Shown one piece after another: positions 2 to 22,172 of a stretch of DNA of 64,000 bases; the stretch's first letter is position 1; each line of letters starts with the position of its first letter. Made by a program: the position numbers and the translations under genes. This DNA is from a candidate division FCPU426 bacterium (GTDB lineage Bacteria; Oederibacteriota; Muellerivitia; Muellerivitales; Muellerivitaceae), in assembly GCA_963771075.1 (NCBI GenBank), contig CAVYSE010000028.1, forward strand, positions 320,001 to 384,000, written 5' to 3'. Under the pieces are notes generated by a model, which did not search any database, had not been told where the DNA came from, and worked only from the letters and a program-made list of their open reading frames with translations.

Positions 2-424
2 ATTCTGGCATTAAACGCGAATGAATGTCCCGCCAAGGACACGCCCGATTTAGCGAAACAATATAAACTTGTCTCGGTCTATTATTCCGTGCCGGACAAC
101 GACCAACAAAATTTCGCCAACGTCGTGTTCCGTTTCGCCTGGAACGGCAAAACGCCCTCTCAAATCGCCGTTCAATTCGTCAACCGGGCCTATGCCGACC
201 GGAAACTCAAGTTCGCGATCAAGGACGTCACTTCCAAAAAACTCGTGCTTTTGGACCCGGTTCATAATTCCCGATTCGGGACGGAATCGTTAAAGGCGAA
301 CTCGAGGGGGAAAATTTGGTCCGGTGAAGTGGACAACATCAATGACAGTTTTTCGCTTCATGTCTGGAACGGTTCGGGCGACGAATTCGACAAGGTGCCC
401 ATCTCCCTCAAAGACCAGCAATGA
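2..424 (+). CDS. hypothetical protein, 5'-truncated by the window edge
   Basis: The frame of ORF 89..424 is open back to position 2 (ILALNANECPAKD...); no recognisable motif. Confidence 0.6.
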   Translation: MLALNANECPAKDTPDLAKQYKLVSVYYSVPDNDQQNFANVVFRFAWNGKTPSQIAVQFVNRAYADRKLKFAIKDVTSKKLVLLDPVHNSRFGTESLKANSRGKIWSGEVDNINDSFSLHVWNGSGDEFDKVPISLKDQQ

Positions 425-671: not shown

Positions 672-2564
672 ATGAATATGGACTGGCTTCCAAAAAACCC
701 CGACTTGGCCAAGCAACTGACAGCGATCAAAAAATCGCCTCCTGCGGAAGCTTGGGGCCTGTTGACCGCGATCGCCCAACAGGACCTCAATTTCCTCGAA
801 ACCTTACAGGTGGATAAGGCTTTAAAGGAAAAATTCGCCGACGCCCCGCCCCCCACCCTCAAAACCAAACCGGTTCGTTTGGCCCTTTTGAGTTCCTGCA
901 CGGTGGACCAGCTCTTGCCTGGCATTCGGATCGGCGCGCTACGCCGAGAAATCTGGGCCACCACCTACCTGACGGATTACGGGCAATCCCTTCAGGAGAT
1001 AATGGAGCCCTCTTCCCGTCTTCACCTCTTCAAGCCAACCACGGTCCTAGTCGCCTATGACGCGATCCATTTATTCGGAACCCAGCCCTTGGGCCAAAAG
1101 GCGGAAGACGCCGACCTAAAGCTGGAGCGGGCCCTGGAAGAGGTTCAAAACCTTTGGCGGCTTTCCCGGGAAAAATGGGGAACCCGGGTTATCCAACAAA
1201 CTCCTCTTCCGCTTTTTCCTCCCCTGATGGGTCAAAATGAGCATCGGCTCTCGGGTTCCCCCGCGCACCTCTTGCGTCTTTTTAACGAGCGCCTGCGCGG
1301 CTTGGCCGACGAGCAAAAGGTGGATCTGCTTGACCTTAACGCTTGGGCTTCGGGGGAAGGCTTGAGGGCTTGGCACGACCCCGTCCTTTGGCACAAGGCC
1401 AAGCAGGAAGTGAGCCCGGTAGCGGGACCCCTTTATGGAGATCTAGTCGGCCGTCTTTTGGCGGCCCAGCAGGGACGCTCCTCCAAATGTCTGGTCCTGG
1501 ACCTGGACAATACCCTCTGGGGCGGTGTGATCGGAGATGACGGGCTTGAGGGCATTCACTTGGGACAGGGGAGCGCTTTGGGGGAAGCCTACGTGGCCTT
1601 CCAACGATACGCCCGGGACCTGTCCGGCCGGGGCGTCATCCTGGCGGTTTGCTCCAAGAACGACGAGAAGAACGCCTTGGAACCCTTTGAGAAGCATCCG
1701 GAAATGATCTTAAGGAAAAAAGATATCGCCTGTTTCGTGGCCAATTGGAACGACAAGGCGTCGAACCTTAAGCTCATCGCCCAGCAATTGAACATCGGGT
1801 TGGATTCACTGGTCTTCGTGGATGACAATCCCTTCGAGCGTAACCAGGTAAGGGGAGAATGCCCGCAGGTGGCGGTGCCCGAACTGCCCGAGGATCCCTC
1901 GCTTTATCCCGCCTGCCTGGCGAACGCGGGATATTTCGAGTCCATCGCCCTGACCCGGGACGACCTGGCTCGTACCGAGCAATACCAAAAGAACCTGGAG
2001 CGGGAGAAGGCGCAAGCCTCTTTTGGTAACGTGGCCGAGTACCTCAAAAGCCTGGAGATGGAGCTGATCTGGGGGCCTTTTGACCCCCTCAGCCTGCCCC
2101 GCGTCACCCAGTTGATCAATAAAACCAACCAATTCAATTTGACGACCCGCCGTTATTCGGAGGAAGATACCTCCCGTTTCGCGTCCGACCCCAAGTCCAT
2201 TACCCTGCGTTGCCGGTTGACCGACCGCTTCGGGGATAATGGGATCATCGGCATTGTGATCGCAGTCCAGGAAGGCCCCGATGACTGGGACATCGACACC
2301 TGGCTGATGAGCTGCCGGGTTCTGGGCCGGGGCGTGGAACAGGCCATGCTGGACCTGCTGGTCCAGGAAGTTTCGGCACGGGGAGGGAAAAGGTTGTTGG
2401 GCCGTTACATCCCCACCGAAAAGAATGGTATGGTCAAAGACCATTACGCCGGCCTGGGATTTGTCGCCTTGGGGGACCCTGGGCCGGGGGAGACCCGTTG
2501 GGTTTTAGGGGTCGATGACAAAAAACGCTTCGAATATCCCATCCATTTGAAAAAAGGAAACTAA
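672..2564 (+). CDS. FkbH-like HAD-IIIC glyceryl-ACP transferase/phosphatase
   Basis: DLDNTLWGG, CSKND, FVDDNPFER, KTNQFNLT, DRFGDNG and LMSCRVLGR motifs. Confidence 0.93.
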   Translation: MNMDWLPKNPDLAKQLTAIKKSPPAEAWGLLTAIAQQDLNFLETLQVDKALKEKFADAPPPTLKTKPVRLALLSSCTVDQLLPGIRIGALRREIWATTYLTDYGQSLQEIMEPSSRLHLFKPTTVLVAYDAIHLFGTQPLGQKAEDADLKLERALEEVQNLWRLSREKWGTRVIQQTPLPLFPPLMGQNEHRLSGSPAHLLRLFNERLRGLADEQKVDLLDLNAWASGEGLRAWHDPVLWHKAKQEVSPVAGPLYGDLVGRLLAAQQGRSSKCLVLDLDNTLWGGVIGDDGLEGIHLGQGSALGEAYVAFQRYARDLSGRGVILAVCSKNDEKNALEPFEKHPEMILRKKDIACFVANWNDKASNLKLIAQQLNIGLDSLVFVDDNPFERNQVRGECPQVAVPELPEDPSLYPACLANAGYFESIALTRDDLARTEQYQKNLEREKAQASFGNVAEYLKSLEMELIWGPFDPLSLPRVTQLINKTNQFNLTTRRYSEEDTSRFASDPKSITLRCRLTDRFGDNGIIGIVIAVQEGPDDWDIDTWLMSCRVLGRGVEQAMLDLLVQEVSARGGKRLLGRYIPTEKNGMVKDHYAGLGFVALGDPGPGETRWVLGVDDKKRFEYPIHLKKGN

Positions 2565-2566
2565 TC

Positions 2567-2818
2567 ATGGACTCGTCGGAAATTTTAACCCGCTTGACCC
2601 GGATCATCACCCAGGTCTTGGGGGATGATTCAATTGTCTTGAATCTGGCCACCACCGCTCAGGATGTGCCGGGCTGGGACTCCTTCAACCACATCAATAT
2701 CATCGTTGGGACGGAGGCGGAGTTCGGGATCAAGTTCAACGCGTCCGAATTGGAGGACCTGAAGAACGTCGGGGATTTCGTGGCGCTGGTTGAAAAACGG
2801 ATGGCCAAGAAAAAATAA
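2567..2818 (+). CDS. acyl carrier protein
   Basis: 83 aa acidic protein with GWDSFNH phosphopantetheine site, 2 nt after the FkbH gene. Confidence 0.92.
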   Translation: MDSSEILTRLTRIITQVLGDDSIVLNLATTAQDVPGWDSFNHINIIVGTEAEFGIKFNASELEDLKNVGDFVALVEKRMAKKK

Positions 2819-2842
2819 CCCACGCCCCTTTAAGGACCCGGC

Positions 2843-4438
2843 ATGCTTTTTAACTCCACGCTCTTTCTCCTCCTTTTTTTGCCTGTTTCCCTGATCGTTT
2901 ATTTCCTGCTAGGTTACTACCGGATGAACGCCGCCAAATTTTGGCTGGCTTTCCTGTCCTTCGTCTTTTATGGCTGGTGGAACCCAAGCTACCTCCTGCT
3001 ATTGGCCCTTTCGATCCTATTCAACTATTGCTTCGGTTATTGCATCCAGCTTTTCCAGGATAAACCCAAGATCTCCCGTTGGATCCTGGCGGCGGGGATC
3101 ACGGGCAATTTGGGGACGCTTTTTTACTACAAATACCTGCTCACCCTCCTCAATTGGTTTCATGAAATGGGCGTCTATCACGGCCCCGATTGGGGTGCCC
3201 TGATCCTTCCCCTCGGCATTTCCTTTTTCACCTTCACCCAGATCGGCTTTCTGGTCGATACCCAGGGAGGGATCGCCAAGGAGCGGGGGTTTTTGGAATA
3301 CGTGCTGTTCGTCACCTTTTTCCCCCATTTGTTCGCCGGGCCCATCCTCCACCACCGCGAGATCATGCCCCAGTTTTCCAAAAAAGAGACCTATTTCCTG
3401 AACTGGAACAATCTCGCGGTTGGGTTGGGTATCTTTATCATTGGGTTGGCCAAGAAGGTCCTGATCGCGGACCAGATTGCCCCCATCGCCAACGATATCT
3501 TCCGGCATACGGCGGAAAAACATGTTTTGGAAGCGTGGACGGGAGTGCTGGCCTATTCCTTCCAGCTTTATTTTGATTTCGCCGGATATTCGGAAATGGC
3601 CCTGGGTTTGGCACGAATGTTCAACGTGAAGTTTCCCGCTAACTTCGACTCCCCTTATAAAAGCAAAAACATCATCGACTTTTGGCAGCGATGGCACATT
3701 TCCCTCACCCGCTATTTGACGCTTTACCTCTACAATCCCCTCTCCCTTTGGATCATGCGCCGCCGGGCGGCCAAGGGGATGGCCTTATTAAGGCCCCAAG
3801 AAACGACTTGGGAAGGTTTTTTCATGATGCTAGCCCTTCCCACGCTTTACACCATGATCCTGGCGGGGGTTTGGCATGGAGCGGGTTTCCAATTCTTTAT
3901 ATTCGGACTCCTTCACGGACTTTATCTTTGTATCAATCATGCCTGGCGCTTTTTCGGCCCCAAACAATCGAAAACACCCCTGAAAACCCTCGTTTCCTGG
4001 CTCGACGGAGCCTGGAAATGGGGCCTGACCTATTTCGCCGTTCTGATCGCCCAGATCTTTTTCCGGGCGAAGACGGCCAAGGACGCCTGGCAATTGATCC
4101 AATGTCTTTTCGGTCGTGGAACAGGGGACAGCCCGGGCGGGGCCACGGGCGTCTTGGAATCGATCCTGGATTATTTCGGTACTCCCGTTCCCTATTGGAA
4201 CTATTCCAACTCCCTGGTCACGCTGGGGGTCCTCTTTGTGTTCATCCTCGTGATGCCCAATGTCCTCCAGATTTATGACCGGGAAGAGGCTTCCCTGACC
4301 AAGCTTCGGTCGGCCCCGGCCTTATTCCAATTTCAATTCCGCCCAAATGTCCTTTGGGGGTTTTTATTGGCGGTGTTGGCTTTGGTCACTTTGCTGATGG
4401 TGACAGGTAATTCCGAATTTTTATATTTCCGTTTCTGA
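2843..4438 (+). CDS. MBOAT O-acyltransferase (AlgI/DltB-like)
   Basis: LPLGISFFTF, YFDFAGYSEMA, FWQRWHISL and GVWHGAG motifs; multiple TM helices; C-terminal EFLYFRF. Confidence 0.93.
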   Translation: MLFNSTLFLLLFLPVSLIVYFLLGYYRMNAAKFWLAFLSFVFYGWWNPSYLLLLALSILFNYCFGYCIQLFQDKPKISRWILAAGITGNLGTLFYYKYLLTLLNWFHEMGVYHGPDWGALILPLGISFFTFTQIGFLVDTQGGIAKERGFLEYVLFVTFFPHLFAGPILHHREIMPQFSKKETYFLNWNNLAVGLGIFIIGLAKKVLIADQIAPIANDIFRHTAEKHVLEAWTGVLAYSFQLYFDFAGYSEMALGLARMFNVKFPANFDSPYKSKNIIDFWQRWHISLTRYLTLYLYNPLSLWIMRRRAAKGMALLRPQETTWEGFFMMLALPTLYTMILAGVWHGAGFQFFIFGLLHGLYLCINHAWRFFGPKQSKTPLKTLVSWLDGAWKWGLTYFAVLIAQIFFRAKTAKDAWQLIQCLFGRGTGDSPGGATGVLESILDYFGTPVPYWNYSNSLVTLGVLFVFILVMPNVLQIYDREEASLTKLRSAPALFQFQFRPNVLWGFLLAVLALVTLLMVTGNSEFLYFRF

Positions 4439-4453
4439 TAGGACGTTTAAAAG

Positions 4454-5473
4454 ATGCATAAATTCATGATTTCTTTCACCTTGGTCCTCGCGTTCGGACT
4501 GGCCTTTGCCTGGAACTGGGGGGTGAGTCATCGCCTGTCTTACCTGAGCCGGGATTACGCCCTCCTGACCGGCAAAAACAGGCTGATGGACGGCTGGAAC
4601 AAGCCCGGATTGGCCATCTTCGGGGACTCGACCGTCATGGACGGCGTCTTGCCCGAAAGGTTGGGGCCGGACGTGGTCAATTTCGCCTTAAATGGCTGCA
4701 CGCCTATCGAAAGTTATTTCATGGCGCGCCGTTTGCTGAAAGGCCCGGTCCCACCGAAAGCGGTTCTCCTTTCCTATAACGCCTATCACTTCGTGCATCC
4801 GGATTTTTACTGGGAAAACACGGTGAAATTCGGCGTGATCAGCGGCTTGGAAGCCGACGAGGTCTTGGCCCATATCCTCGAAACGAACGATCAGGAACTA
4901 TTGACCACCTCGAGCCTTTGGCATTTGGAGCAACGGCTCTATTCCTTCCTGCTCTCGCGCGGCTTTCCCTCCTACTATATGTCGTCCCTTTTCGCCGAAC
5001 GCTATGGGGTCCGGGAAAAGGAAAACGAGGAGGCCCTCAAGGTCATCGCCCGCACCCGGGGCCAATATTACTTCCCCCTGTCGGATGGGTCCCAAGACTT
5101 GAACGCGGACACCAAATTGAAGACCTTTAATGTCAGCCCGGTGGTGGATATTTATTTCCGAAAAACCCTCGATATGCTCCGAGAAGCCCATATTCCGCTT
5201 TATTTTTACGCCATGCCCATCAACGAATCGTCCGTTCCCCATCTTGACCCGGGTGTTTTCAAAAGTTATCAGGTTTATTTGGAGGGTCTGGCGAAAGCCG
5301 ATCCCCAATTCCACATCCTTTATCCCATGCGGACGGTTTATCCCTGGAGGCTTTTTTCCGACTACGCCCATTTGAATAAAAATGGTACCCAGCGTTTTAA
5401 CAGGGAATTCGCCCGGATCTTGAACCGTTCCAGGGTCCCGGGCGGGCCTTATGGAGCCCCTTCCGGTCGATGA
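4454..5473 (+). CDS. membrane-anchored SGNH-fold acyltransferase (AlgJ/DltD-like partner of the MBOAT)
   Basis: N-terminal TM/signal, IFGDS block, C-terminal DYAHLN (DxxH); directly after the MBOAT gene. Confidence 0.75.
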   Translation: MHKFMISFTLVLAFGLAFAWNWGVSHRLSYLSRDYALLTGKNRLMDGWNKPGLAIFGDSTVMDGVLPERLGPDVVNFALNGCTPIESYFMARRLLKGPVPPKAVLLSYNAYHFVHPDFYWENTVKFGVISGLEADEVLAHILETNDQELLTTSSLWHLEQRLYSFLLSRGFPSYYMSSLFAERYGVREKENEEALKVIARTRGQYYFPLSDGSQDLNADTKLKTFNVSPVVDIYFRKTLDMLREAHIPLYFYAMPINESSVPHLDPGVFKSYQVYLEGLAKADPQFHILYPMRTVYPWRLFSDYAHLNKNGTQRFNREFARILNRSRVPGGPYGAPSGR

Positions 5474-5531
5474 CTTCATTTGGTCGTTGAACCTTCTAAT
5501 TTACCTGCCACAAAGTTGGGTTAAGATTGGT

Positions 5532-7004
5532 ATGGTTTTGACCGATTCAAAGGAGTTGTCCTTGCCCGGAATCAAGCTTTACGCGAAAAAAAAGTTCAAC
5601 CCAAGGGACCTGGGCGCTTTCGCGGCCTTAACGGGCGATCAAAACCCGATCCATATGGACGCCCTCGTCGCGAGGAGGGCTTTTGAGGGTTCCCGTGTGG
5701 TACATGGAGTATTGGTGCTGCTTCATGGTTTGGATCAGTGGGCCAGGGTACAAAAGAAATGGCCTGTTCAAAGAATAAAGTGTGACTTTAAAAAACCGGT
5801 TCTCCTGGATGAATCAGTCGAATATGTTTGGGGAGAAACCGGGACGGGCTCCATCAGGATAAGGGCCCTGGTGGATGAGGTCGTCTGTGCTGAGATCGAG
5901 TTATTCGGGGAAATGGGAAATGGTTCTTCCCTCCTCCCCTCCCGGGGAGGTCACGAGCCGCTCGATGCCTTAAAAAGCCCTTTAGAATGGGACCCGAGCA
6001 GTGGAAACAAGTTATCCGGGACCCTCTCCAATCCCCCAAACGCCCTTCTTAAAAAACATTTTCCCGATCTTTGCCGTTGGCTCCCGGCTTCGAAGGCATC
6101 CGCCCTGTCCCGCCTTTCCTATATCGTCGGCATGATCTGCCCTGGCCTTTACTCGCTTTTTGCTTCCCTGGATATCTCCCTCACGGACGACAGCCCCTCC
6201 CCCGGTTTGACCCTCTTTTCCATTCATCATTACGATGATCGTTTCCATCAAGTGGAGATCCAGGTCAGCGGTGAATGGGGAGGAACGGTCAAGGCCTTTC
6301 TCCGTCCCAAGCCCTACCAACAACCCGGAATGGAATCGATCCGGGGTTTGGTGGTGCCGGAGGAATTTCTATCGGCCCGGGCACTGGTCATCGGCGGATC
6401 CAGGGGGTTAGGGGAGCTCACGGCCAAGCTTCTTTGTTCGGGTGGAGCAAGGGTCACTCTGGGTTATCGGGCGGGAAAAGAGGAAGCTTTGCGAATTAAG
6501 GACGAAATATCAAAATCCGGCCTGGGATCCTGCCAGCCGCTCCAGGTGGATATCCTCAAGCCCCCTTCCAAAACGTTTATCGAAGCGTTAAGCGGGATCA
6601 ACGGTCTTTATTACTTTCCAACTCCCGTGATCTTCAAAAAAGAATCGAGACTATTCGTCAAAAAGCATTTCGACGATTTCATCGACTATTACGTCGACCG
6701 CTTTTATGCGGTTTGTTTAGCCCTTGAAAATAATTCAGCAAATAAGGTTCAGGTCTTCTTTCCCTCCACCGTTTTCATCGATCAAAGGCCAAACGGTATG
6801 ACGGGTTACGCCATGGCAAAGGCGGCTGCCGAGATCTTGATCCAGGACATCAACCGTTCTTTCAAAAAGGTCAACGTGGTCTCGGCCCGTTTGCCCCGAC
6901 TTGGAAGCGATCAAACCAATTCGATCTTTGAAACCAAGAAGGAGGACGGCATATCCGTCCTACTTCCCATTCTTCGATCCATTCAAAGCCGTTTGAACGA
7001 ATGA
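5532..7004 (+). CDS. MaoC-type dehydratase / SDR ketoreductase fusion
   Basis: FAALTGDQNPIHMD...VVHG hot-dog motif; ALVIGGSRGLG Rossmann motif and YAMAK (YxxxK); ATG 5532 chosen to avoid overlap with the upstream gene. Confidence 0.8.
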   Translation: MVLTDSKELSLPGIKLYAKKKFNPRDLGAFAALTGDQNPIHMDALVARRAFEGSRVVHGVLVLLHGLDQWARVQKKWPVQRIKCDFKKPVLLDESVEYVWGETGTGSIRIRALVDEVVCAEIELFGEMGNGSSLLPSRGGHEPLDALKSPLEWDPSSGNKLSGTLSNPPNALLKKHFPDLCRWLPASKASALSRLSYIVGMICPGLYSLFASLDISLTDDSPSPGLTLFSIHHYDDRFHQVEIQVSGEWGGTVKAFLRPKPYQQPGMESIRGLVVPEEFLSARALVIGGSRGLGELTAKLLCSGGARVTLGYRAGKEEALRIKDEISKSGLGSCQPLQVDILKPPSKTFIEALSGINGLYYFPTPVIFKKESRLFVKKHFDDFIDYYVDRFYAVCLALENNSANKVQVFFPSTVFIDQRPNGMTGYAMAKAAAEILIQDINRSFKKVNVVSARLPRLGSDQTNSIFETKKEDGISVLLPILRSIQSRLNE

Positions 7005-7038: not shown

Positions 7039-8940
7039 ATGAGCCGTTTTTTATTATTATTCGTACTGGCCGCCCTTACCGCCGGGCTCGAACCTTGCGG
7101 GGCCCTCACCCCCATGGACTATTACCAAAGCCTAGTGGCGGGAGCCGATGAGGACGGCTTTCAGGATGGCGGCTTTTCCCTGGCTCGTTTTAACAATCCT
7201 TCCGGCTTGGCTTTTGACGCCACGGGCCGCCAACTTTATGTAGCGGATAGGGACAATCAAAGGATACGGGTTGTGGATCTGGACCAGGACAATAGGGTAA
7301 AAACCCTGGCAGGTACCGGCGCGGTCGGATCTCAGGATGGCCCCCTATTCAAAGCCACCTTTAACGCTCCTTCCTTACTCGCCGCGATACCCAATCACCG
7401 CCTGGCCCTTTTTGACGCCGGAAGCGGGCGAATCCGCATTTTGGACCTTCAAAGCCAAACTGTTTCCACCCTCGCGAAAGGCGTCACGATTTGGAACATG
7501 ATTTACCTTCCACAAGACGATTGCCTGTATTTTTCGGAGCCCGACAACAAAAAAATCGAGAAATTGAACATGAAATCATTGGCGATCACGGATGTCGTGT
7601 CAGGCCAATCCCAGCTTTCTTCCCCCGGGGCTTTATGCCTATTTCAGGACCACCTTTGCGTGGCGGACACGCGCTTGCCCACGATTTATGAAGTGAGTGC
7701 GAATCCGGCTTCCGCTTCTGTTTCCCTTTTCCCCGTGGGAAAGGCTAAGGATATCCTGGCCTTGGCCTCTTCGGACGGCATCCTTTATGCGTTGGAGAAA
7801 GGCGACCAGTTGGTCAAGGTGGGTTTGACCGGCCCCGCCACGATCCAATTCCCCACCCCTTGGGGTTTTTTGCTCAAGAATGGGGAACATGAAGGCGCGA
7901 TGAGCCTATTCCATCTTCAAGAGGAAAACCCCGTCGGGTTCCTTTCTTCCCCCTCCGAACCCCGGAAGCTCTACCTATCCACCCAACATTCGATTTTGAG
8001 CGTGCGGGATTATGATTTTGAAAAATGGTGGTCCGCCTTCAAGGATAACGGGCATCACTTGACGGATTTTGATTACCCCGCCCCCAAACCGCCTCGAACC
8101 TTCCGGATCTTGGCCATCGGAACCTCCCGTAATTCCACGTCGGTATTCCTACCCCCCGACCTCAAGGCCGGCATTGACGAGAACATCGAGACACCCCGGG
8201 TCCTCACCTTTTCCAAACGGTTGGAGCTTTTGTTGAACACCGAGGCCACCCTTCAAAACTCGAAGGTTCATTTCGAGGTTTTAAACCTGACCCACCGCGG
8301 GGAACCCATGAGCACCTACGGTTATTATGAAGTCCCTGATTTCGTAAAAAAATATGACATTGATCTGGTGATTGGCCTGGCGGATCAAACGGGCTACATC
8401 GATTATTTTGAGAGGCCCATGACATCCGAAGGCATCCCCGCCCATTCCCTCGATTACGAATATATGTTCAAGCCCCTCTCCCAACGGGCGAATTCGGACG
8501 TGGCCAAAAACCTGCTGGAGCGCTGTAAAGCCCTGAAGATTCCCCTATCGGATAAACAGGATTACCCGGGCGACGGCACTTGGAGCCTTTTTTGCAATGG
8601 CGACTCGCAAATGCAAAGGGATCTCCGGGAGATGACAGGCCGAAGGCTCCAACTCCTTGATCAAAAACTGAAAAATATGAAAACGTCCGGGGGAAATAGA
8701 CCGGGTTTGGTTTTTTATTACGTCCCCGGAGGTGCCCTCCCTAATGATTGCGGCGGGCCTTTTTGGAGGGAGGTTTGCGCCCAGTTCCGCTTGAGTTTCC
8801 TCGACTTGAGCGAACCTTTTAACGCCCTGAAAACCAGCTATGCCCCCGTCTATTTCGACCATTTCACGGCCTACGGAAACGAACTGGTCGCCCTGCTGTT
8901 AGGGCATTACCTGGTCGAGGATAAGTTCATTCCTTTTTGA
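7039..8940 (+). CDS. secreted NHL-repeat beta-propeller + SGNH-like domain protein (paralog 1)
   Basis: Signal peptide; FNNPSGLAFD...LYVADRDNQRIRVVD NHL repeats; FRILAIGTS and C-terminal DHFTAYG; GAGGAG RBS. Confidence 0.75.
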   Translation: MSRFLLLFVLAALTAGLEPCGALTPMDYYQSLVAGADEDGFQDGGFSLARFNNPSGLAFDATGRQLYVADRDNQRIRVVDLDQDNRVKTLAGTGAVGSQDGPLFKATFNAPSLLAAIPNHRLALFDAGSGRIRILDLQSQTVSTLAKGVTIWNMIYLPQDDCLYFSEPDNKKIEKLNMKSLAITDVVSGQSQLSSPGALCLFQDHLCVADTRLPTIYEVSANPASASVSLFPVGKAKDILALASSDGILYALEKGDQLVKVGLTGPATIQFPTPWGFLLKNGEHEGAMSLFHLQEENPVGFLSSPSEPRKLYLSTQHSILSVRDYDFEKWWSAFKDNGHHLTDFDYPAPKPPRTFRILAIGTSRNSTSVFLPPDLKAGIDENIETPRVLTFSKRLELLLNTEATLQNSKVHFEVLNLTHRGEPMSTYGYYEVPDFVKKYDIDLVIGLADQTGYIDYFERPMTSEGIPAHSLDYEYMFKPLSQRANSDVAKNLLERCKALKIPLSDKQDYPGDGTWSLFCNGDSQMQRDLREMTGRRLQLLDQKLKNMKTSGGNRPGLVFYYVPGGALPNDCGGPFWREVCAQFRLSFLDLSEPFNALKTSYAPVYFDHFTAYGNELVALLLGHYLVEDKFIPF

Positions 8941-8960: not shown

Positions 8961-10991
8961 TCACTTGACCGGAGGTGTTTGGGGGGCCTCAGGGGGGCTA
9001 TCCAGTACCGGGGTAGGTGTCGGCTCGGGAACGGGGAAGTCAATGATATGTCGCTTGATCATTTCATGGGCGATAAAGTAAGCCACGATGTTGCAGAACT
9101 CGGGTGTGTAATGGCCGATACCCCCGCCCTCATCCGTGGGAAAATAGGTCGGCGTGGAAACAATGAAATCATCCACCAAGTCGATATAAGGCCAACCTTG
9201 TTGTTCGGCCACCGTTTTCCAGAAATTCCGGTATAGTTCCAAGGTTCCCGGAGCGTATCGGGATAGGGTCAAGGCCATTTGATACCGGACCGGTTTTCCA
9301 TCCCTGGTTTTTAATTTTCTCAGTTTTTCCGACAACATGCCTATAGGCTTCCCGAGTAATTCAAGTAAATCCTGGCGGATGGCCTTGTCGGTAATCGTCT
9401 TGTCCATATCCTCCATTTGAAAGGCAACATCGGACTTTGGGATGATCCACCCTTTCGCCTTGCATTTATTGTAAAAATCCTCCGGTAGGCCCTTGGGAAT
9501 CTTGTCCTTCCAAGGCTTCAAACCGTATTCCCCATCCCAATTCATTTCTGGAATTCCCTCGGGTGTCATGGGAAACCAGTAATAGCTGATGTAACCGTAA
9601 GTTGGGACAGTCCCGAAGAGATACAAGACCAAATCAATGTCAAATTTATTGACCAAATCGGGTACCTCATAATAGGGCCAAAGAAAAGAGGGCATTCCTT
9701 GATAGCCATGCCCCACGGACAGGACCTCATAATTCATCGGAACGTCATCCAGGGCCGCCTCGGTATTCAACAAAAGCTCCAACCTCTTGGGCATCGCCAA
9801 GATTCGGGAAGGCCCATAAGGTTGATTGGCCGGTTGATAAAAATATGAAAAGGTCAAGGAATCACCCACGATCAATATTCGATAGGTATGGGCGGGCTTT
9901 TTAAAAGGATAGGTGTAATCATTGAGGTTACTGACCGGGTTTCTTGAGTCCAAACCCCATTTCTCATGGATGTCAAAATCGTAATCTTTCAATCGTAGGA
10001 TGTTTTGACTAGTGCCTCCAGTCATGTAAAAACATCTTTCCTGGTTCGGGTCCGCCACGAACCCGGCGCTCTCCTCGTTAAAATGACATAGGTTGGTGAG
10101 ATAGGGACCCCAAGCCGAGGTAATATTCAAATCTCCTTGAGGAATCAGCCGCCCCCAGGGGGCTCCTTGGGAATCGGTCAAACAATAAAGTTTGTCGGCC
10201 CAGCTTGCCATCGCGAGAATATTCCCGTTGATCCCATTTTGTGAAATGATACTGACACTGGTGGAAAAACTGGCGGAAACAGTATTGGGGTGGCAATCAA
10301 CTTGGTAGGTAATCGAACCCATGCGGTTGGAGACGCAAAGATGTCCTTGATAGAGACAAAGGGCGGCGGGGTTTGGGAGATGTTGATCGTTTTTGAGGAT
10401 CACCTGGGTCAATCCGGTTTTAAGGTCTAGCCTCTTTAGAAAACCTTCAATGGGTTGGGTGAAATAGAGAGAGTCCTCGGTTGGGACATAGGTTAGGTTC
10501 CAGACGTCTGGGAGGGATGGATCTTTTGGTTTTCCATCCTTGTCTGGATCCAGTAACAGGGTGTTCACTTGCTTTTGATCCAAATCAAGGACTCGGATCT
10601 TAGCATTTCCTGAATCAAAGACCGCCAAACGGTTACCGGAAAGAAAGGCCAAGACCGTCGGTTTATTAAAGAGCGCCTGGTCGAAGGGGCCGTCTTTAAA
10701 ACCCGGCTTTCCTGACCCTGCCAGTGTCTCCACTCGGTTGTTTTCCTCCAGAAAAACAACCCGGACACAATGATTTTCCCGATCCGCTACGAAAAGTTCT
10801 GTCCCCTCGGGGTTGGTGGCCAGTCCCTGGGGATTGTTAAAAAGAGCGGATTGAAAAGGCCCATCCCGGTAACCCGTGTCACCTTCTCCCGCAACCAGGT
10901 CGTGATACTGAACGAGTGGTTTCAAGGCAAATGCATCGGATATCAAGCCGTTGCACAAGAGAAAAGCCAATAACAAAAGTCGAAAATTCAT
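8961..10991 (-). CDS. secreted NHL-repeat + SGNH-like domain protein (paralog 2)
   Basis: Start MNFRLLLL with GAGG RBS; FNNPQGLA...LFVADRENH; YRILIVGDS; GHYTP; Pro/Thr-rich tail. Confidence 0.78.
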   Translation of the reverse strand: MNFRLLLLAFLLCNGLISDAFALKPLVQYHDLVAGEGDTGYRDGPFQSALFNNPQGLATNPEGTELFVADRENHCVRVVFLEENNRVETLAGSGKPGFKDGPFDQALFNKPTVLAFLSGNRLAVFDSGNAKIRVLDLDQKQVNTLLLDPDKDGKPKDPSLPDVWNLTYVPTEDSLYFTQPIEGFLKRLDLKTGLTQVILKNDQHLPNPAALCLYQGHLCVSNRMGSITYQVDCHPNTVSASFSTSVSIISQNGINGNILAMASWADKLYCLTDSQGAPWGRLIPQGDLNITSAWGPYLTNLCHFNEESAGFVADPNQERCFYMTGGTSQNILRLKDYDFDIHEKWGLDSRNPVSNLNDYTYPFKKPAHTYRILIVGDSLTFSYFYQPANQPYGPSRILAMPKRLELLLNTEAALDDVPMNYEVLSVGHGYQGMPSFLWPYYEVPDLVNKFDIDLVLYLFGTVPTYGYISYYWFPMTPEGIPEMNWDGEYGLKPWKDKIPKGLPEDFYNKCKAKGWIIPKSDVAFQMEDMDKTITDKAIRQDLLELLGKPIGMLSEKLRKLKTRDGKPVRYQMALTLSRYAPGTLELYRNFWKTVAEQQGWPYIDLVDDFIVSTPTYFPTDEGGGIGHYTPEFCNIVAYFIAHEMIKRHIIDFPVPEPTPTPVLDSPPEAPQTPPVK

Positions 10992-11174
10992 CGTTTCCTC
11001 ATAATAAAGTCTGAAGAATCCTTTTTCACCAAGTGTAATTTCAATGGTGAACAAAATTCATATTATGTCTATCTTAGGGTACTATTCTAAGGTTATCGAC
11101 CCCCTTTCAAGATTGGAAGGGATATTCCTGGTGACCCCAAACCGCCGCCCTTCATTTTGAAAGGAACCCGCGTA

Positions 11175-13193
11175 ATGGAAAACTATTTTTCAAAACACAA
11201 CTCTTTGTTCTTTCTTCTCTTCTTCGCCGTACTCTTTCCACAAACGTCCTGGGCCCTCCGGCCCTATTCTTCCCGAATGGCGCTTGTTGCCGGCACGACC
11301 AGTCCAGGTTTCCAAGATGGGGATTTCTTAACCTCCACTTTTAACCGTCCACTGGGAATCACGATTAACCCGGATGGAACCGAACTATTTATCTCCGATA
11401 CGGACAATAACCGTATCCGAATTGTTCATTTGGACCAGAAAAACAACGTCACCACCTTATCCGGGGGTAGGCAAGCGGGAAATCAAAATGGTTCCTTGAC
11501 GGAAGCCCGGTTTAATAAACCCCAGCAAATCCTCTATCTGCCGGGGGACCGGCTGGCGGTGAATGACGCCGGTAATAAGCTTTTGCGCCTGGTGGACCTG
11601 AAGGCGGGGACGGTTTCCACCCTTGCCGGAAGCGCCTCCGCCACCTTGAATGAAGGCCCCGCAACCCAGGTATCCATGAGTTCCATCCAGGACATGGCCT
11701 ACTTTTCGGATCTCGATTCCATCCTTCTGGCTTTCTACGATAAGCCGGGGATTAAAAGGCTGGACCTGAAAAGCGGCACGCTGACCCAGATCAGCTCTGT
11801 TCCCACCAACGGCTTGAACCAGCTAAAACCAGGGGCCCTCCTGGTTTGGGACAAAAAGGTCTACCTTTCCGACAGCAGTTCCCCCAAGGTATTCGCCATG
11901 GAATTGAATGAGAAGGGCGTTGCCGATCCGGTATCCATCGCGACCGCCATGTCCTCGGTGATTGCCTTGGCGCAAAACGGAGGCATCCTGTATGCCCTTC
12001 AGAGAAACGACATGGACCCGATGGATCGGCTTCTTCCCTATCATTATCCGGTCACCTTTGTTTCCGACTGGGGCGACGCGGTACAGAATCCGGCCGGCCG
12101 TCTTCCCACTTTTAAGGACATCTTTAACAACGATTCTCATATGTCGTTTGTGACCGATCCAAACGACAAACGGAAATTTTACCTACTTAACCCTAGCTCG
12201 AATATCGTGACGTCCTTCCGGGATCTCTTTGGAACGGAATTCGCGGGTGGGGACGACCGCAATTACAACGGATTCAACGATTTCGCCTATCCCGAGATCA
12301 AACCGCCCCATACCTTCCGCATCATGCTGGTGGGCGATTCCCGTCCGACCGTAATCCACATGATTCTTTCGACCGATCCCACCCGGAGGCAGCTGACCCT
12401 CTGCAAGAGGATGGAGACCGAACTGAATATGTTGGCGGCCATTGACGACCAACCCCTCAATTACGAGGTGGAGTTCCTGGGACATTCCGCCGGTAACCCG
12501 TTATTCCATTGGCCCACCTACGAAGTCCCCCCCTTGGCCGCCAAAAACGACGTCGATTTGGTGATCCTTTTCATGACGGTGCTTGCGGGGGATAATCCCC
12601 TTTCCGCCTATTTCATGAGCCCCTTGACCAAAGAGGGGATTATGCCTTCCTACTATTACGATCCGGAATTCTGCATGAAACCGGCTGAGCAACGGATTTC
12701 CCCGGGGATCTTGAGGAAATTCTACGACCTCCTCAAGGCCCACCACCTGGTTCAAATCAAGGACAACAATTTCATATTGGACAACGCCCTCGAAAAGGAA
12801 CCGGACCTTCATGACACGGTAGTCCAGCTTTATGGAAAACCAGTCGCCGTGCTAAACCAAAGGCTATCCTCCATCAAAACTTCCTCAGGTAAGCCTGTGC
12901 GCCTGCTTCTTTGTTTCGTCCCCGACACCAACTACCTGATGGACTTTTCCCCCGAATCCAAAATCTGGGAGGACGCGGCCAGCCGGTTCAATTTTCCTTT
13001 TTTGAACCTTTTTCCCGAGGTCACGGCCACGAAGCTTTCCTTTTACCCTCAAGATGAGGAAAGCTGGGCGGGTCATTTCACCGCCAACGGCCACCTGTAC
13101 ATGGGTTCGCTTCTCGTGCACGACTTGATCAAAAAGGGCCTCATCCCCTGGGAAAAGAACCCCGAAGCCACTCCTACTATCGATGAAAAGTAA
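11175..13193 (+). CDS. secreted NHL-repeat + SGNH-like domain protein (paralog 3)
   Basis: Signal peptide; FNRPLGITI...ISDTDNNRIR; FRIMLVGDS; GHFTANGH. Confidence 0.78.
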   Translation: MENYFSKHNSLFFLLFFAVLFPQTSWALRPYSSRMALVAGTTSPGFQDGDFLTSTFNRPLGITINPDGTELFISDTDNNRIRIVHLDQKNNVTTLSGGRQAGNQNGSLTEARFNKPQQILYLPGDRLAVNDAGNKLLRLVDLKAGTVSTLAGSASATLNEGPATQVSMSSIQDMAYFSDLDSILLAFYDKPGIKRLDLKSGTLTQISSVPTNGLNQLKPGALLVWDKKVYLSDSSSPKVFAMELNEKGVADPVSIATAMSSVIALAQNGGILYALQRNDMDPMDRLLPYHYPVTFVSDWGDAVQNPAGRLPTFKDIFNNDSHMSFVTDPNDKRKFYLLNPSSNIVTSFRDLFGTEFAGGDDRNYNGFNDFAYPEIKPPHTFRIMLVGDSRPTVIHMILSTDPTRRQLTLCKRMETELNMLAAIDDQPLNYEVEFLGHSAGNPLFHWPTYEVPPLAAKNDVDLVILFMTVLAGDNPLSAYFMSPLTKEGIMPSYYYDPEFCMKPAEQRISPGILRKFYDLLKAHHLVQIKDNNFILDNALEKEPDLHDTVVQLYGKPVAVLNQRLSSIKTSSGKPVRLLLCFVPDTNYLMDFSPESKIWEDAASRFNFPFLNLFPEVTATKLSFYPQDEESWAGHFTANGHLYMGSLLVHDLIKKGLIPWEKNPEATPTIDEK

Positions 13194-16413: not shown

Positions 16414-18534
16414 ATGGAAATGATGCCCTTTCTTCGCCGGCAAAGATTTTTTTTCTTTCCCTCCGCTTCCTGGACTTCGTTCAGTTTATTTTTAATATCA
16501 AATTCTTTTCTGTCGCATGGCTCTCTCGACTGGAAATCCAAACTGCTACTGGGATTCACCGGTCTTTTATTCCCCTTTTTAATTCTCCTTTTCAAACCTT
16601 ACCACCCACTTCCCGGGCCCGAGGGGTGTCAAGAAAAAGAGATTCCCCCCTTATCCCTGTTTTTTTGGATTCTCCTGCTTTTGGCGGCTGGGTACCTGCG
16701 TTTTCACGACCTCACCACCCTCTGCACCTGGCCATTCGTGGACGAAGGACGTTTCGGGTATTTCTCCCTTTGTTTGAGTGAGAAGTGGAGATGGAATCTT
16801 TTTTTTGACCAAACCCAAATTCCCCCTTTTTACTACTGGGGGCTAGGGTTGTTCTTCAAGGTATTCGGGCCATCTCTCCAGAATTTGTGGCTTTTCCCGG
16901 CGATCCTGTCTTTATCGGCTATCCCTCTGGTTTATTTCGCTTCCCGGCTTTTTTTTCCATCTTCGCGTTCGGTATGCGTTACCCTTTTCTGGGCCTTGAG
17001 TTACTGGCCCCTTTTTACCGGTCGTCAAAGCTCATTTTTGTCGCTTCTCCTCCTTTGGCAATTGTTGGCTTTTTATGTTTTGGGTTTATATCTGCGACAA
17101 GAACAACGAGGGTCCCATAAAGCGCAGGCTTTGATTTTGGGCCTCGTTCTAGGCGCCGGGTTTTACGTCAGCGTCCACTGGGTGTTTATGGCCGCTTGGA
17201 CCACCCTGGTCGTGGGGTTCCACCAATTTCGGAAACCCGTCAAAAGCCTCCTCCCTGTGATTTATTTTGGGGGCCCACTTCTTTTATTGCCACTGCCGAT
17301 CTTGGTTGCCTTCCTGACGGGGGATCACGGCTCCTATTTGCAATCCCTCAGCGTTTTTAGCAATGATTTTCAATGGTCTAAACAGGTGCACATTTGGTGG
17401 AAATACATGAGTACCCCGATTTGGGGGGACCCGAATGAACGCCTGGGTTATAACCCGATTTGGGGGGGGTATCTAAATCCCGTGGCGGGCGCATTCTTTT
17501 TATTCGGATTAGCGGAAACATTCCGGAATTTTAAGCAACCGAAGAATTTAGGACTTTTATCGGGTTTTGCTTTTTTCGCATTGCCTGGACTCATGACCTG
17601 CCAATATGAACCTTTTCGCCTTCTTCTCATCCTTCCGGTCCTTGCGTCGATAACCGGACTAGGTATTTGGAAATTATTCACCGAATCAGATAAAGCTACT
17701 TCAAGGCTATTTTGCGTTCTCTTATTGGTTACTTCGATCGCTTTGGATATATACCATTTGGATGGCCCTTACCAACACCTGTGGCGTACCGATTGGAAAG
17801 CCGCGCATATATCATCCAAACTATTGGAACGATGGAAAGCTTTCGAAATTCTCTCATCCATCGAAAGAAAATCGGGCCCGGGTCTTATATTCACGGAATT
17901 TGATCAAACACTCATTGATCAAACCTTAACCACCGCTCTTTATCCCTTTAACGCGTCGCGGAATCCCTCCCTCTCCCCCGATCAGGCCCGTTGGGCGAGT
18001 CTCCTGACCAACATCAATTACGCCCCTTTCCTGAACAAACGCTTTCCCGATTCCAAATGGTTTCCCTTATCGTCCGATCAAGACCCGTCCCATGCGACCC
18101 TGGTCCTGGGCATTATCCCGGTGGAACCCGAAAACAAAAAAACGTTCCTTCATTGGCTTGAAATCGAGAGAAGCCTCCGTCCCGAAACCTTTGAATGGCT
18201 CCAAATCCCTTTGAACCGGACCAGCCCCCACTTGAGCCAATGGCTTTACCCGATTCTTTCCATGACAGAAAAGGACCCTTTTTTGGAATCTTGTCTGGGA
18301 GAAAGGCTTTTTTATGCCGAAATGACCAACGCTCATTGGAACGATGTATTCAAGGTTCTTCAACGGGCCATCACCTTGGGCTACCCATCCGCCAATCTAT
18401 ACAATGATTTGGGTGTTTATTGGTTCGCGATGGGGAATCCCGACAAAGCCCGCGAAGCCTTTCAAGCCGCTAGGCGTTCACCCCTCCATTACATCGGCTC
18501 TCCCTATAATCCTCAGGTCACGACCCATCCCTAA
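16414..18534 (+). CDS. GT-C (ArnT/PMT-like) membrane glycosyltransferase with C-terminal TPR (paralog 1)
   Basis: Many TM helices; LRF..L...WPFVDEG and PPFYYW; TPR-like LYNDLGVYWF...AREAF. Confidence 0.65.
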   Translation: MEMMPFLRRQRFFFFPSASWTSFSLFLISNSFLSHGSLDWKSKLLLGFTGLLFPFLILLFKPYHPLPGPEGCQEKEIPPLSLFFWILLLLAAGYLRFHDLTTLCTWPFVDEGRFGYFSLCLSEKWRWNLFFDQTQIPPFYYWGLGLFFKVFGPSLQNLWLFPAILSLSAIPLVYFASRLFFPSSRSVCVTLFWALSYWPLFTGRQSSFLSLLLLWQLLAFYVLGLYLRQEQRGSHKAQALILGLVLGAGFYVSVHWVFMAAWTTLVVGFHQFRKPVKSLLPVIYFGGPLLLLPLPILVAFLTGDHGSYLQSLSVFSNDFQWSKQVHIWWKYMSTPIWGDPNERLGYNPIWGGYLNPVAGAFFLFGLAETFRNFKQPKNLGLLSGFAFFALPGLMTCQYEPFRLLLILPVLASITGLGIWKLFTESDKATSRLFCVLLLVTSIALDIYHLDGPYQHLWRTDWKAAHISSKLLERWKAFEILSSIERKSGPGLIFTEFDQTLIDQTLTTALYPFNASRNPSLSPDQARWASLLTNINYAPFLNKRFPDSKWFPLSSDQDPSHATLVLGIIPVEPENKKTFLHWLEIERSLRPETFEWLQIPLNRTSPHLSQWLYPILSMTEKDPFLESCLGERLFYAEMTNAHWNDVFKVLQRAITLGYPSANLYNDLGVYWFAMGNPDKAREAFQAARRSPLHYIGSPYNPQVTTHP

Positions 18535-18600
18535 ACACCCCGGGTATTCCCGGTACCCTACAAGCACCCCTTCTCGAAGGGTTGAGGTAAAATGAACCGG

Positions 18601-20685: not shown

Positions 20686-20692
20686 AGGGAAG

Positions 20693-21067
20693 GTGGACCA
20701 AATGGCGCATCGAGACTTTTTAAGCCTGGATTTGGCGGATCAGTGCGAAAGCTTGGCGGGGGAGGTCAACAAGGTTTATTCCCATTTAGCCTGGGCCATG
20801 AAAAACGCCACCGTTTCCCGCCTGAAGCGGCAGATCCACGAGTTGTCCGAGCAGGTCCATAAGGCCAAGACCTCCTCGGGGGCCCTCAAAACCCAGAAAC
20901 ATCTCAAAGAGGCGCTGTCCCTGACCCATGAGTGTGTTCCCCTGATGGCCCTCTGCTTGAAGAAGAACATGCTGTCCAAGGAGCTCCATGACCGATGGGT
21001 GAGACAACTAGGGGCGATCGAAGTTCAACTGGAAGACTGGCTAAAGGGAACGGGTGGTAAGGCGTAG
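20693..21067 (+). CDS. four-helix-bundle protein, diverged
   Basis: 124 aa, all-helical pattern resembling the 23S rRNA intervening-sequence protein family. Confidence 0.5.
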   Translation: MDQMAHRDFLSLDLADQCESLAGEVNKVYSHLAWAMKNATVSRLKRQIHELSEQVHKAKTSSGALKTQKHLKEALSLTHECVPLMALCLKKNMLSKELHDRWVRQLGAIEVQLEDWLKGTGGKA

Positions 21068-21074
21068 AAGCGGA

Positions 21075-22025
21075 TTAAGAGTTGGATCCCTGGAGCTGGA
21101 CGGTAGAGACGGTTTCCACCTGAAGCGTGGAATGATGAATTCCCTTTTTTTCCTCCAACCATCGGCTGGAACGTCGAAGGATCTCCTGGGCCCCGCTCAA
21201 GGGCTGGTCTTCCACCACCAGGTGGGCGGTTAATTGAATCTCCCCTGAGCCCACTTCCCAAAGATGCACATGGTGGACGTCCCGGATCTCCTTGATCTCC
21301 TCCATGAGATCTTTGCGAATCACGTCCGGGGTCATTCCACGGGGCGCCGACTCCAGCAGGATACGCAGGGCCCGCCGGAAAAGTTTGAATGCGATCAAGC
21401 CGATGAGGCAGGCGATCCCCAGGCTCAAGAGGGGATCCACCCAGGCCCATCCGGTTTTCGCGATGACAACCACGGCCACTAATACCCCCAGGGAGGAGGC
21501 AAGGTCACCCATCACATGGATCCAAGCGCTCTGCAGGTTCAAATCATGGCCTTCGGCCCCATGCAGGAACCAAGCCGACAGCGCGTTGGCCAGAAACCCC
21601 ACACCCGCGATGATTCCCATGGTTTTCCAATCGGGAAGACTTGGGTGGGAAAAACGCTGGAAGGCCTCCCAGGCCACCCCTCCGACCATGAGAAAAAAAG
21701 TCATGGAATTGCCCAGCGCGGCCAAGACCTCCAGCCGGGCCCATCCGTAGGTGTGGCGGGAACTGGCGGGCCTCTCGGCCATAATCATGGCGGCGAGGGA
21801 AATGAGAAGCGCGGCCAAATCCGTGAGCATGTGCCCCGCGTCGGAAAGCAACGCCAGGGAACCCGAGAGCACTCCTCCCACCGCTTCCAGGACCAGGATA
21901 CCGCCCGTGATTCCGATGGCCCATAACATTCGGGATTGGCGGCCTCGATCCAAGAACTCCTGGGTCTCGTGAGCATGCGAATGGGCCGATGGGTGGGTAA
22001 GCTTTATTGAATGAGAATGGCTCAT
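21075..22025 (-). CDS. cation diffusion facilitator (CzcD/ZitB-like Zn/Co/Cd exporter)
   Basis: His-rich N-terminus, SLALLSDAGHMLTD, TYGW.RLE, HVMGD, HVHLW, HSTLQVE; start 22025 or 22034. Confidence 0.92.
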   Translation of the reverse strand: MSHSHSIKLTHPSAHSHAHETQEFLDRGRQSRMLWAIGITGGILVLEAVGGVLSGSLALLSDAGHMLTDLAALLISLAAMIMAERPASSRHTYGWARLEVLAALGNSMTFFLMVGGVAWEAFQRFSHPSLPDWKTMGIIAGVGFLANALSAWFLHGAEGHDLNLQSAWIHVMGDLASSLGVLVAVVVIAKTGWAWVDPLLSLGIACLIGLIAFKLFRRALRILLESAPRGMTPDVIRKDLMEEIKEIRDVHHVHLWEVGSGEIQLTAHLVVEDQPLSGAQEILRRSSRWLEEKKGIHHSTLQVETVSTVQLQGSNS

Positions 22026-22172
22026 GAGCCCCATTGTATTGTCTTCACTTTCCCTTTAAACAGGGGATTAAAGGGATAAATTTACTTTCATTTCAAGGCA
22101 GGGTGAAGACTTGTTAAAATCGAAAAGTTCCCTGGCTGATTCCAATCCCAGCTTCCCGCGGACAAGCGAACA

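Follow-up and report, generated by a model that had tools for sequence, protein, structure and literature searches.

The window analysed in this work is a stretch of 64,000 nt from the genome of a candidate division FCPU426 bacterium (assembly GCA_963771075.1, contig CAVYSE010000028.1, positions 320,001–384,000; the contig is denoted C28 below), which has a size of 4.39 Mb and a completeness of 96.7%. Translation of the window yields, near its left end, a cassette of five open reading frames (ORFs), all on the plus strand. An earlier note on this DNA had described five co-oriented genes here, for FkbH, an acyl carrier protein (ACP), an MBOAT, an SGNH protein, and a MaoC-SDR fusion, with no ketosynthase (KS) among them; all five are found in place with their catalytic motifs intact, and the 19 neighboring proteins that were scanned indeed contain no KS. 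The gaps between the genes are 2, 24, 15, and 58 bp, the last being replaced by a 23 bp overlap if the final ORF starts at the ATG at 5451. The start at 5532 is favored, because the database protein and the relatives begin there (490 aa). The genes, and two motifs of the MBOAT that are important for the discussion, are as follows.

672..2564, plus strand: FkbH, long form (FkbH_N domain, HAD domain, C-terminal Cys domain), predicted glyceryl-ACP loader, 630 aa (TIGR01686)
2567..2818, plus strand: dedicated ACP, 83 aa (PF00550)
2843..4438, plus strand: MBOAT of PatA/AlgI architecture with a DltB-like putative carrier-docking segment, 531 aa (PF03062)
3689..3880, plus strand: RWH-to-WHG segment of the MBOAT, residues 283–346, 64 aa (alignment to DltB)
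4418..4435, plus strand: C-terminal FXYXXF hexapeptide of the MBOAT, F526-L-Y528-F-R-F531 (motif as in PMC12148441)
4454..5473, plus strand: DltD-like SGNH acyltransferase with an N-terminal hydrophobic helix and S59/D303/H306, 339 aa (motifs, model, Foldseek)
5532..7004, plus strand: stand-alone DH-KR (MaoC-type double hotdog plus SDR), predicted glyceryl-to-lactyl converter, 490 aa (motifs, model, HHalign)

Among 30 genomes of the same family, the four- or five-gene set stands together in six and is divided between two contigs in one more, and such recurrence shows that the cassette is not a chance arrangement. The first protein scores 308 bits against TIGR01686 (cut-off 147) and matches the structure 3slr with an E-value of 3e-65; the match of its N-terminal domain to PF21211 is weak (E 0.004). 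The HAD signature D277-x-D279-x-T281 (DxDxT) and C548 are unchanged in all 24 aligned sequences, and the conserved Cys is known to have a role in FkbH proteins. Family score and motifs place the protein among the FkbH glyceryl transferases; its predicted substrate is 1,3-bisphosphoglycerate, from which it would load glycerate onto an ACP. The ACP lies above the PF00550 cut-off and has its predicted phosphopantetheine site at S39 within a W-D-S motif, W37 and D38 of which are invariant, while S39 is retained in 19 of 20 aligned sequences. It is distant from the housekeeping ACP encoded on contig C7 (115 vs 48 bits). FkbH is a single-copy gene here, and neither a second FkbH nor a second ACP resembling that of the cassette was found in this genome, which also encodes two phosphopantetheinyl transferases.

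The MaoC-SDR fusion matches PF01575 (E 3e-11) and PF00106 (E 7e-6) and belongs to a family of at least 1,134 members. D36, H41, S412, Y426, K430, and the GGSRGLG loop are kept in all 38 aligned members (G289 in at least 90%), and D36 and H41 align with the Asp and His pair of the (R)-specific enoyl-CoA hydratase 1iq6, which has a catalytic role there. The predicted structure (pLDDT 90.5) consists of two hotdog halves and a Rossmann domain, for which Foldseek returns generic SDRs and one double-hotdog dehydratase (4v12), with nothing substrate-specific.

A tblastn search with the same protein against 72,556 plasmids gave four records, one of which is the N-terminus of a 4,928-aa polyketide synthase (PKS) on plasmid p1 of Burkholderia sp. 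FERM BP-3421. This PKS has FkbH at residues 716–1034; regulator and acyltransferase genes precede it, and its cluster terminates in an HMG-CoA synthase cassette, a dioxygenase, and a P450. The strain is reported to produce FR901464 (PMC10190677), and fr9A and Pfr9C are described as controlling PKS-NRPS genes in it (PMC12301960; NRPS, nonribosomal peptide synthetase); from the gene order, we infer that the 4,928-aa protein is Fr9C. HHalign aligns the window protein with the PKS N-terminus at 99.75% (E 1.9e-27) over 431 columns that span both domains, at 20% identity, and the D-x-NP-x-H, GGSRGLG, and S..Y-x3-K motifs are common to the two. A second such PKS, from Ensifer canadensis, gives the same HHalign score. 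The latter is a protein of ~5,000 aa (L103, 9944–21428) that opens with a DH-KR-FkbH loading module like that of the FERM BP-3421 PKS; it is encoded on the conjugative plasmid pT173a and adjoins IS21 elements.

By its sequence, the window fusion is thus a free-standing DH-KR of the PKS type. The lactyl starter of FR901464 arises through a pyruvoyl intermediate and has the L configuration. According to a review, DH-KR proteins turn glyceryl-S-ACP into lactyl-S-ACP in the biosynthesis of FR901464 and lankacidin (PMC4765723). That the MaoC-SDR protein of the window performs the same conversion, as had been proposed, is predicted from its full-length homology to the loading DH-KR of the FR901464 producer.

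The gene neighborhoods are consistent with such a function. In the best 80 of 537 DH-KR relatives in GTDB contigs, FkbH is found within 10 kb in 63, an ACP in 60, an MBOAT in 34, and all three in 27; where more than 6 kb is available on both sides (n = 55), FkbH is present in 48 and MBOAT in 26. One cultured strain, Terracidiphilus gabretensis S55, carries the complete set of ACP, FkbH, SGNH, MBOAT, and DH-KR genes (L046). Ten of the 17 loci with no local FkbH were checked by a genome search, and all ten genomes have FkbH elsewhere, so that the MaoC-SDR protein does co-occur with FkbH, as the earlier note required. Across 301 evenly sampled Alphaproteobacteria, 29 genomes have FkbH and six have DH-KR, the latter always within ~5 kb of FkbH; one of the six is the center genome, picked via its DH-KR. 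Natural fusions are also known, namely P0173 (DH-KR, FkbH, ACP, and thioesterase) and P0174 (FkbH and DH-KR). These two were the only fusions retrieved in a DH-KR profile search for longer fused forms, which returned no named PKS but was crowded and is weak as a negative. P0174 is a fusion of 1,502 aa with a very long branch, and its letter make-up is strongly unlike the rest. FkbH-ACP(-ACP)-thioesterase fusions, adjoining or fused with DH-KR, are seen at L082, L085, L089, and P0173, in loci rich in glycosyltransferases.

The likeness to PKS loading modules raises the question whether the product of the FkbH-ACP-DH-KR unit, lactyl or glyceryl, is the starter of a polyketide, tetronate, or peptide that is built by genes elsewhere in the genome. 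Starter formation is the only characterized role of DH-KR-FkbH-ACP units in the review cited above (PMC4765723), and stand-alone KS genes sit on contigs C2, C4, C16, and C18. However, C28 carries no KS, the six KS matches of the genome all falling on other contigs and in ORFs of at most 465 aa; neither an NRPS condensation domain nor a modular PKS was found genome-wide in this 96.7% complete genome; and the single FabH lies in the fatty-acid cluster on C7. We therefore consider a starter role to be hardly probable, and the least probable of the alternatives discussed here.

The consumer of the acyl group is instead suggested by the MBOAT and SGNH genes. The MBOAT matches PF03062 with an E-value of 1e-16 and DltB structures with 7e-25, and it gives 163 bits against the DltB equivalog TIGR04091, below the cut-off of 375. 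H285 and H345 are unchanged in all 17 sequences compared, and H345, in the WHG motif, aligns with the catalytic H336 of DltB. The extreme C-terminus, residues 526–531, reads FLYFRF, and none of F526, Y528, and F531 varies among the 17 sequences. The tyrosine of this FXYXXF motif is described, for PatA and DltX, as ferrying the acyl group from the MBOAT to the SGNH protein, and the same account presents MBOAT/SGNH pathways other than Dlt as working with an acyl-CoA donor and no carrier protein (PMC12148441). The FXYXXF shuttle alone says nothing about the type of donor.

A clue to the donor is offered by the segment between the RWH and WHG motifs. In DltB, this is where helix HC lies, which is reported to bind DltC via M302, V305, I306, M309, K312, and R317 (PMC11035591). 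The DltC-binding residues align with N298 to R308 and beyond in the window MBOAT, which has a lengthened basic stretch (R306–R308, K311) at the place of the helix, with a putative docking role. The measurement of this segment covered 121 MBOAT ORFs that were no shorter than 380 aa and had both motifs; ORFs without both were left out, including 10 of 80 metagenome loci and 7 of the 17 MBOAT ORFs of FkbH-anchored loci. In 60 rows, the segment has 44 residues with a GG loop, and FkbH or an ACP is located within 5 kb in only one of these. The remaining 61 rows have 46–65 residues (64 in the window, 51 in DltB), and 50 of them are linked to FkbH or an ACP. A segment of more than 44 aa is hence found in 50 of 51 linked MBOATs vs 11 of 70 unlinked ones. 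The MBOAT-anchored set, which comprises the best 80 of at least 596 relatives with 71 rows measured, contains 13 long-linked, 7 long-unlinked, no short-linked, and 51 short-unlinked rows. In a FastTree of the MBOATs calculated without the segment columns, the long form appears in four or more separate groups, set between rows of the short form; owing to long-branch warnings, the count of origins is soft. A predicted complex of the MBOAT with the ACP scores 0.20 against a mark of 0.32, and since controls were not folded, this value is not used either way.

Some of the long-unlinked rows have a ready explanation. L152 does have an ACP, missed by the ACP profile, together with an AMP ligase; L144 has an AMP ligase; and the flanks of L157 and L158 are short. 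The other three of the seven are L161, which gives no clear picture, and L146 and L150, which are taken up below. L152 (402–11343) and L144 are also of interest in their own right. Both loci are of Gram-negative type, where NfrA-like and GT2 genes stand together with AlgF, a pair of ALGX-family SGNH proteins, a long-segment MBOAT, an ACP, and an AMP ligase. Judging from these genes, they may combine a Dlt-like donor with an alginate-style acylation apparatus. Another MBOAT, of the short-segment type and ~400 aa, lies close to the window at L001 11510–13955 (C28 ~316500–318950), on the minus strand. It is divergently oriented, frameshifted in this assembly, and without the FXYXXF end; it has an unassigned 345-aa partner, and intact copies are located near the cassette in the relatives G018 and G025.

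The SGNH protein gives only weak matches in Pfam (DUF1574, E 0.003), with no ALGX match in that scan, and in the ESM Atlas it falls among hypothetical, DUF1574, and PF27429 clusters that add no function. Its G-D-S59 and D303-x-x-H306 motifs are nevertheless invariant in the 20 aligned relatives, which were taken from 52 matches. DltD is the best PDB match of the profile (E 0.011), and Foldseek places DltD chains at all of ranks 1–9 for the predicted model (pLDDT 85), with a best E-value of 2e-5. The model has an N-terminal hydrophobic helix at residues 2–25, where the hydropathy scan stays below its calling threshold, and it is this helix on which membrane anchoring of the protein would rest.

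Taken together, these data suggest the following mechanism, each chemical step of which is modeled on characterized homologs. What is observed directly is the gene content, the intact catalytic motifs, the folds of the DH-KR and SGNH models, the relationship of the DH-KR with its counterpart in a PKS loading module, and the co-occurrence of the genes. FkbH would load glycerate from 1,3-bisphosphoglycerate onto S39 of the dedicated ACP. The DH-KR would then dehydrate glyceryl-ACP to pyruvoyl-ACP and reduce the latter to lactyl-ACP. The MBOAT, using H345, would move the acyl group from the ACP to its own C-terminal Y528, from which the DltD-like protein would take it on S59 and esterify a hydroxyl of an envelope polymer. 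That the relay is fed by the ACP is, in our judgment, very probable: the correlation described above points to the ACP as the donor of the MBOAT, which bears the mark of carrier-linked rather than carrier-less MBOATs, in line with the earlier premise that acetyl-CoA is not used. The acyl cargo is probably lactyl, and otherwise glyceryl. For the mechanism as a whole, that is, a carrier-fed relay that delivers lactyl made by FkbH-ACP and DH-KR to an envelope polymer through the MBOAT and the SGNH protein, our confidence is moderate, somewhat better than even.

It is instructive to compare the cassette with known systems. It shares with the Dlt pathway of teichoic-acid D-alanylation (DltA, DltC, DltB, DltX, and DltD) an MBOAT with the catalytic His, the FXYXXF tyrosine shuttle, an SGNH protein of DltD fold, a carrier-bound thioester donor, as predicted here, and a lengthened segment where DltB binds DltC. 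However, the loader is FkbH and not an adenylating ligase, no AMP-binding (DltA) match being present among the neighbors scanned; a neutral hydroxy acid of three carbons, in place of D-alanine, is predicted as the cargo and would be edited by the extra DH-KR; and the shuttle is fused to the MBOAT, whereas in Dlt it is provided by the DltX microprotein, for the gene of which the gaps of 2–58 bp leave no room. Because DltA and DltX are lacking and the MBOAT scores under the DltB cut-off, the cassette would work like Dlt but is not a member of it. With PatA/PatB and AlgI/AlgJ/AlgX it has in common an MBOAT with a fused C-terminal FXYXXF adjoining an SGNH protein. It differs from them in having an ACP and its loader in the operon, the ACP gene lying 24 bp upstream of that of the MBOAT, in the 64-residue segment that replaces the short GG loop of the carrier-less relatives, and in the DltD-like nature of the SGNH partner.

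The FR901464 PKS loading module (DH-KR-FkbH-ACP) resembles the cassette in its collinear DH-KR with the same motifs, its long-form FkbH, and its ACP, and comparable loading modules are carried by the BryA and tartrolon PKSs. In the cassette, by contrast, the proteins are free-standing, the identity is 20–26%, there is no ketosynthase, and the predicted consumer is a membrane acyltransferase. FkbH and MBOAT also meet in the suomilide and varlaxin aeruginosin clusters, as a domain of AerB and as AerQ, respectively. There, FkbH acts at the start of the NRPS, with the MBOAT modifying the peptide once it is complete, and the part of the account that bears on these clusters proposes no hand-over from an FkbH carrier to the MBOAT and mentions neither an SGNH partner nor a DH-KR (PMC10143770). 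Within the literature searched, which did not extend to subscription journals and supplements, work on aeruginosin-type peptides is the only one to mention FkbH and MBOAT together, and no description of FkbH-ACP feeding an MBOAT-SGNH pair was found. A possible precedent in Campylobacter, with a carrier and FkbH-like genes, finds no mention in PMC3068675. The cassette is thus likely to be a previously undescribed variant of the MBOAT-SGNH relay that O-lactylates an envelope polymer.

Several observations weigh against this interpretation, and they concern the donor, the cargo, and the acceptor. As to the donor, if at least 3 kb is demanded on both sides, the MBOAT-anchored counts fall to 4 long-linked, 4 long-unlinked, 0 short-linked, and 18 short-unlinked rows (p 0.005), and these kin are not independent. 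For L146 and L150, whose segment is also long, full flanks were available, and no carrier was found in them. The relative G003, which has the full cassette elsewhere, contains a second MBOAT-SGNH pair (63% and 41%, respectively) of the long form with no FkbH or ACP beside it. One may thus ask whether the MBOAT and the SGNH protein are an ordinary O-acetyltransferase of the PatAB/AlgIJ type that uses acetyl-CoA, while FkbH, ACP, and DH-KR merely travel with it and feed a separate pathway. Besides the solitary pair of G003, this would fit with the absence of FkbH or ACP near 58 of the 71 MBOAT relatives (35–48% identical) and with the frequent occurrence of DH-KR, FkbH, and ACP without an MBOAT. 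On the other hand, no short-segment row of the MBOAT-anchored set (n = 51) is linked, and the window MBOAT is of the long form; the distribution of FkbH over the 30 family genomes coincides with that of the orthologous MBOAT (at least 63% identical), both being present in the same seven; the genes are tightly packed, with gaps of 2–24 bp; and no other consumer of the ACP was found. We consider the acetyl-CoA explanation very unlikely, although slightly less so than the starter role.

As to the cargo, the window DH-KR is only 20–26% identical to the DH-KRs of PKSs, the rows of which form a long separate branch, so its substrate or product may differ. Furthermore, DH-KR does not always accompany the other genes. 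Among 33 FkbH-anchored loci of Alphaproteobacteria, an ACP is found in 26, an MBOAT in 16, and this DH-KR in 5, while 7 more have a differently built MaoC and SDR pair, fused or split. The 16 loci with FkbH and MBOAT contain DH-KR in 2 cases, a split MaoC and SDR in 3, and neither in 11. Within the family, DH-KR is present in five of the seven genomes mentioned above and was not found in G025 (89% complete, with an otherwise intact four-gene locus) and G008 (98% complete). In G008, the cassette is split and stands beside a transposase-like ORF; the copy in G001 has stops in several genes. Of the five genes whose co-occurrence the earlier note had put forward, it is therefore FkbH-ACP-MBOAT-SGNH that recurs as a core, with predicted glyceryl transfer, whereas DH-KR appears to be an optional and exchangeable editor of the acyl group. 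This being so, glyceryl- and lactyl-type versions likely both exist.

The history of the DH-KR in this family points in the same direction. The window DH-KR shares only 34% identity with its counterparts in three close relatives and belongs to another clade, whereas the other four genes are 58–80% identical; it also stands downstream of the cassette, vs upstream in the three relatives. It is thus likely that DH-KR was replaced, or recruited twice, in this family. Its GC content at third codon positions (GC3) is low, 0.59 vs 0.68–0.76. Together with the 11 loci having no dehydratase/reductase pair and with the presence of glyceroyl groups on surface glycans, for the N-glyceroyl type of which PMC5378307 describes the genes as unidentified, this favors a relay that delivers glyceryl or a mixture, the late-arrived DH-KR being slow on this ACP or serving another acceptor. 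However, two DH-KR lineages beside the same cassette in one family suggest selection for the pairing, the catalytic motifs of the DH-KR are all intact, and the genome offers it neither a second FkbH nor a second ACP of this kind to serve. Delivery of glyceryl or a mixture is accordingly, in our view, the foremost alternative to lactyl delivery, with a chance in the order of one in a handful.

In addition, 46 of the 80 DH-KR loci have no MBOAT in the fetched flank. Genes of other transferase types are found beside DH-KR in the same 80 loci, namely AAC(3)-like proteins in 17, the PEP-CTERM exosortase-associated hydrolase in 13, AT3 in 11, and LbH in 10, and WcbI-family proteins are present at L049 and L102. 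DH-KR is consequently not tied to the MBOAT, and the FkbH-ACP-DH-KR unit seems to be a donor module that feeds several transferases. At the Burkholderiales loci L022–L048, L059, L072, L084, and L098, DH-KR, FkbH, and ACP stand beside an AAC(3)-like protein and an AT3 acyltransferase. The same loci contain genes for a hydrolase, a ligase, and a decarboxylase that are associated with the exosortase A system, which is a PEP-CTERM/exopolysaccharide setting. They are candidates for the formation of N-lactyl or N-glyceryl sugars.

As to the acceptor, the scan of the neighbors found no glycan-synthesis genes beside the cassette in the window. The surroundings contain the following genes.

2..424: 151-aa secreted protein, gene starting upstream of the window (L001 14969–15424), of a small family (cluster c24) that recurs beside the cassette in relatives
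7039..8940, plus strand: secreted NHL-repeat protein (PF01436), 34 bp downstream of the cassette, a possible accessory of uncertain membership
7039–8940 (plus), 8961–11054 (minus), and 11157–13193 (plus): copies of the NHL-repeat family, with further copies on C3 and C11
13296–16412: two squalene/phytoene synthase genes and a flavin oxidoreductase, which we take to be hpnCDE-like
16414–24284: three membrane proteins of ~700 aa whose C-termini carry TPRs, possible glycosyltransferases, with weak PMT_2 (GT-C type) matches in two

The NHL-repeat family is a lineage-expanded one of secreted proteins of ~630–700 aa, 30–37% identical to each other, with at least seven copies in the genome; the NHL repeats are N-terminal and are followed by an unassigned C-terminal domain. 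In the NHL neighbors, the latter was considered as an SGNH domain, because its G-x-S and late His motifs are alike, but this was rejected, as Pfam, PDB, and HHalign gave no support.

With these neighbors, the same relay might acylate something other than a polymer, such as a lipid-linked sugar, a glycoprotein, or an exported small molecule, the NHL-repeat proteins perhaps being later transferases. No glycan genes adjoin the cassette, the membrane proteins with weak PMT_2 matches lie 9–17 kb downstream, NHL-repeat paralogs flank the cassette in six fetched relative loci (L013–L017 and L104), and in the suomilide and varlaxin clusters, acylation by MBOATs is described for small molecules (PMC10143770). 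Nevertheless, the FXYXXF shuttle with a DltD-fold partner is an architecture described for envelope polymers (PMC12148441), and the genome contains no NRPS or modular PKS. Homologous loci, moreover, often lie within polysaccharide clusters: Wzx flippases are found in 16 of the 80 DH-KR loci, which also contain glycosyltransferases and UDP-sugar dehydrogenases. A non-polymer acceptor is on these grounds unlikely, yet less so than the acetyl-CoA explanation. The O-acylation of a surface glycan proposed in the earlier note is consequently suggested by the homologous loci and by analogy with DltD/PatB chemistry, while the genes at this locus do not speak for it.

We finally put forward, tentatively and at somewhat less than even probability, a broader hypothesis. 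FkbH-ACP, with or without DH-KR, would be a widespread and hitherto undescribed donor module for the glyceryl and lactyl decoration of bacterial surface glycans, feeding interchangeable transferases (MBOAT-SGNH, AAC(3)-like, AT3, WcbI, LbH, and thioesterase). Carrier-fed MBOATs would have arisen several times from acyl-CoA-using ones by lengthening of the carrier-binding helix, so that segment length would predict the donor. The window would represent the lactyl version, and the lactyl starter modules of PKSs would be fused offshoots of envelope chemistry.

In a 2025 mechanistic paper, Dlt is presented as the one MBOAT/SGNH pathway that relies on a carrier protein (PMC12148441). If the present proposal is correct, the cassette, the parts of which are all small, would add a third layout of the pathway, which combines a carrier-fed donor, a fused tyrosine shuttle, and a glycolysis-derived cargo made by polyketide-starter chemistry. 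The segment length may serve as a sequence mark for sorting thousands of "AlgI-like" MBOATs by donor. The cassette genes are also candidates for introducing glyceroyl and lactoyl groups into surface glycans, and this gene set, which recurs in many bacteria, would then explain the origin of some unusual surface-sugar decorations.

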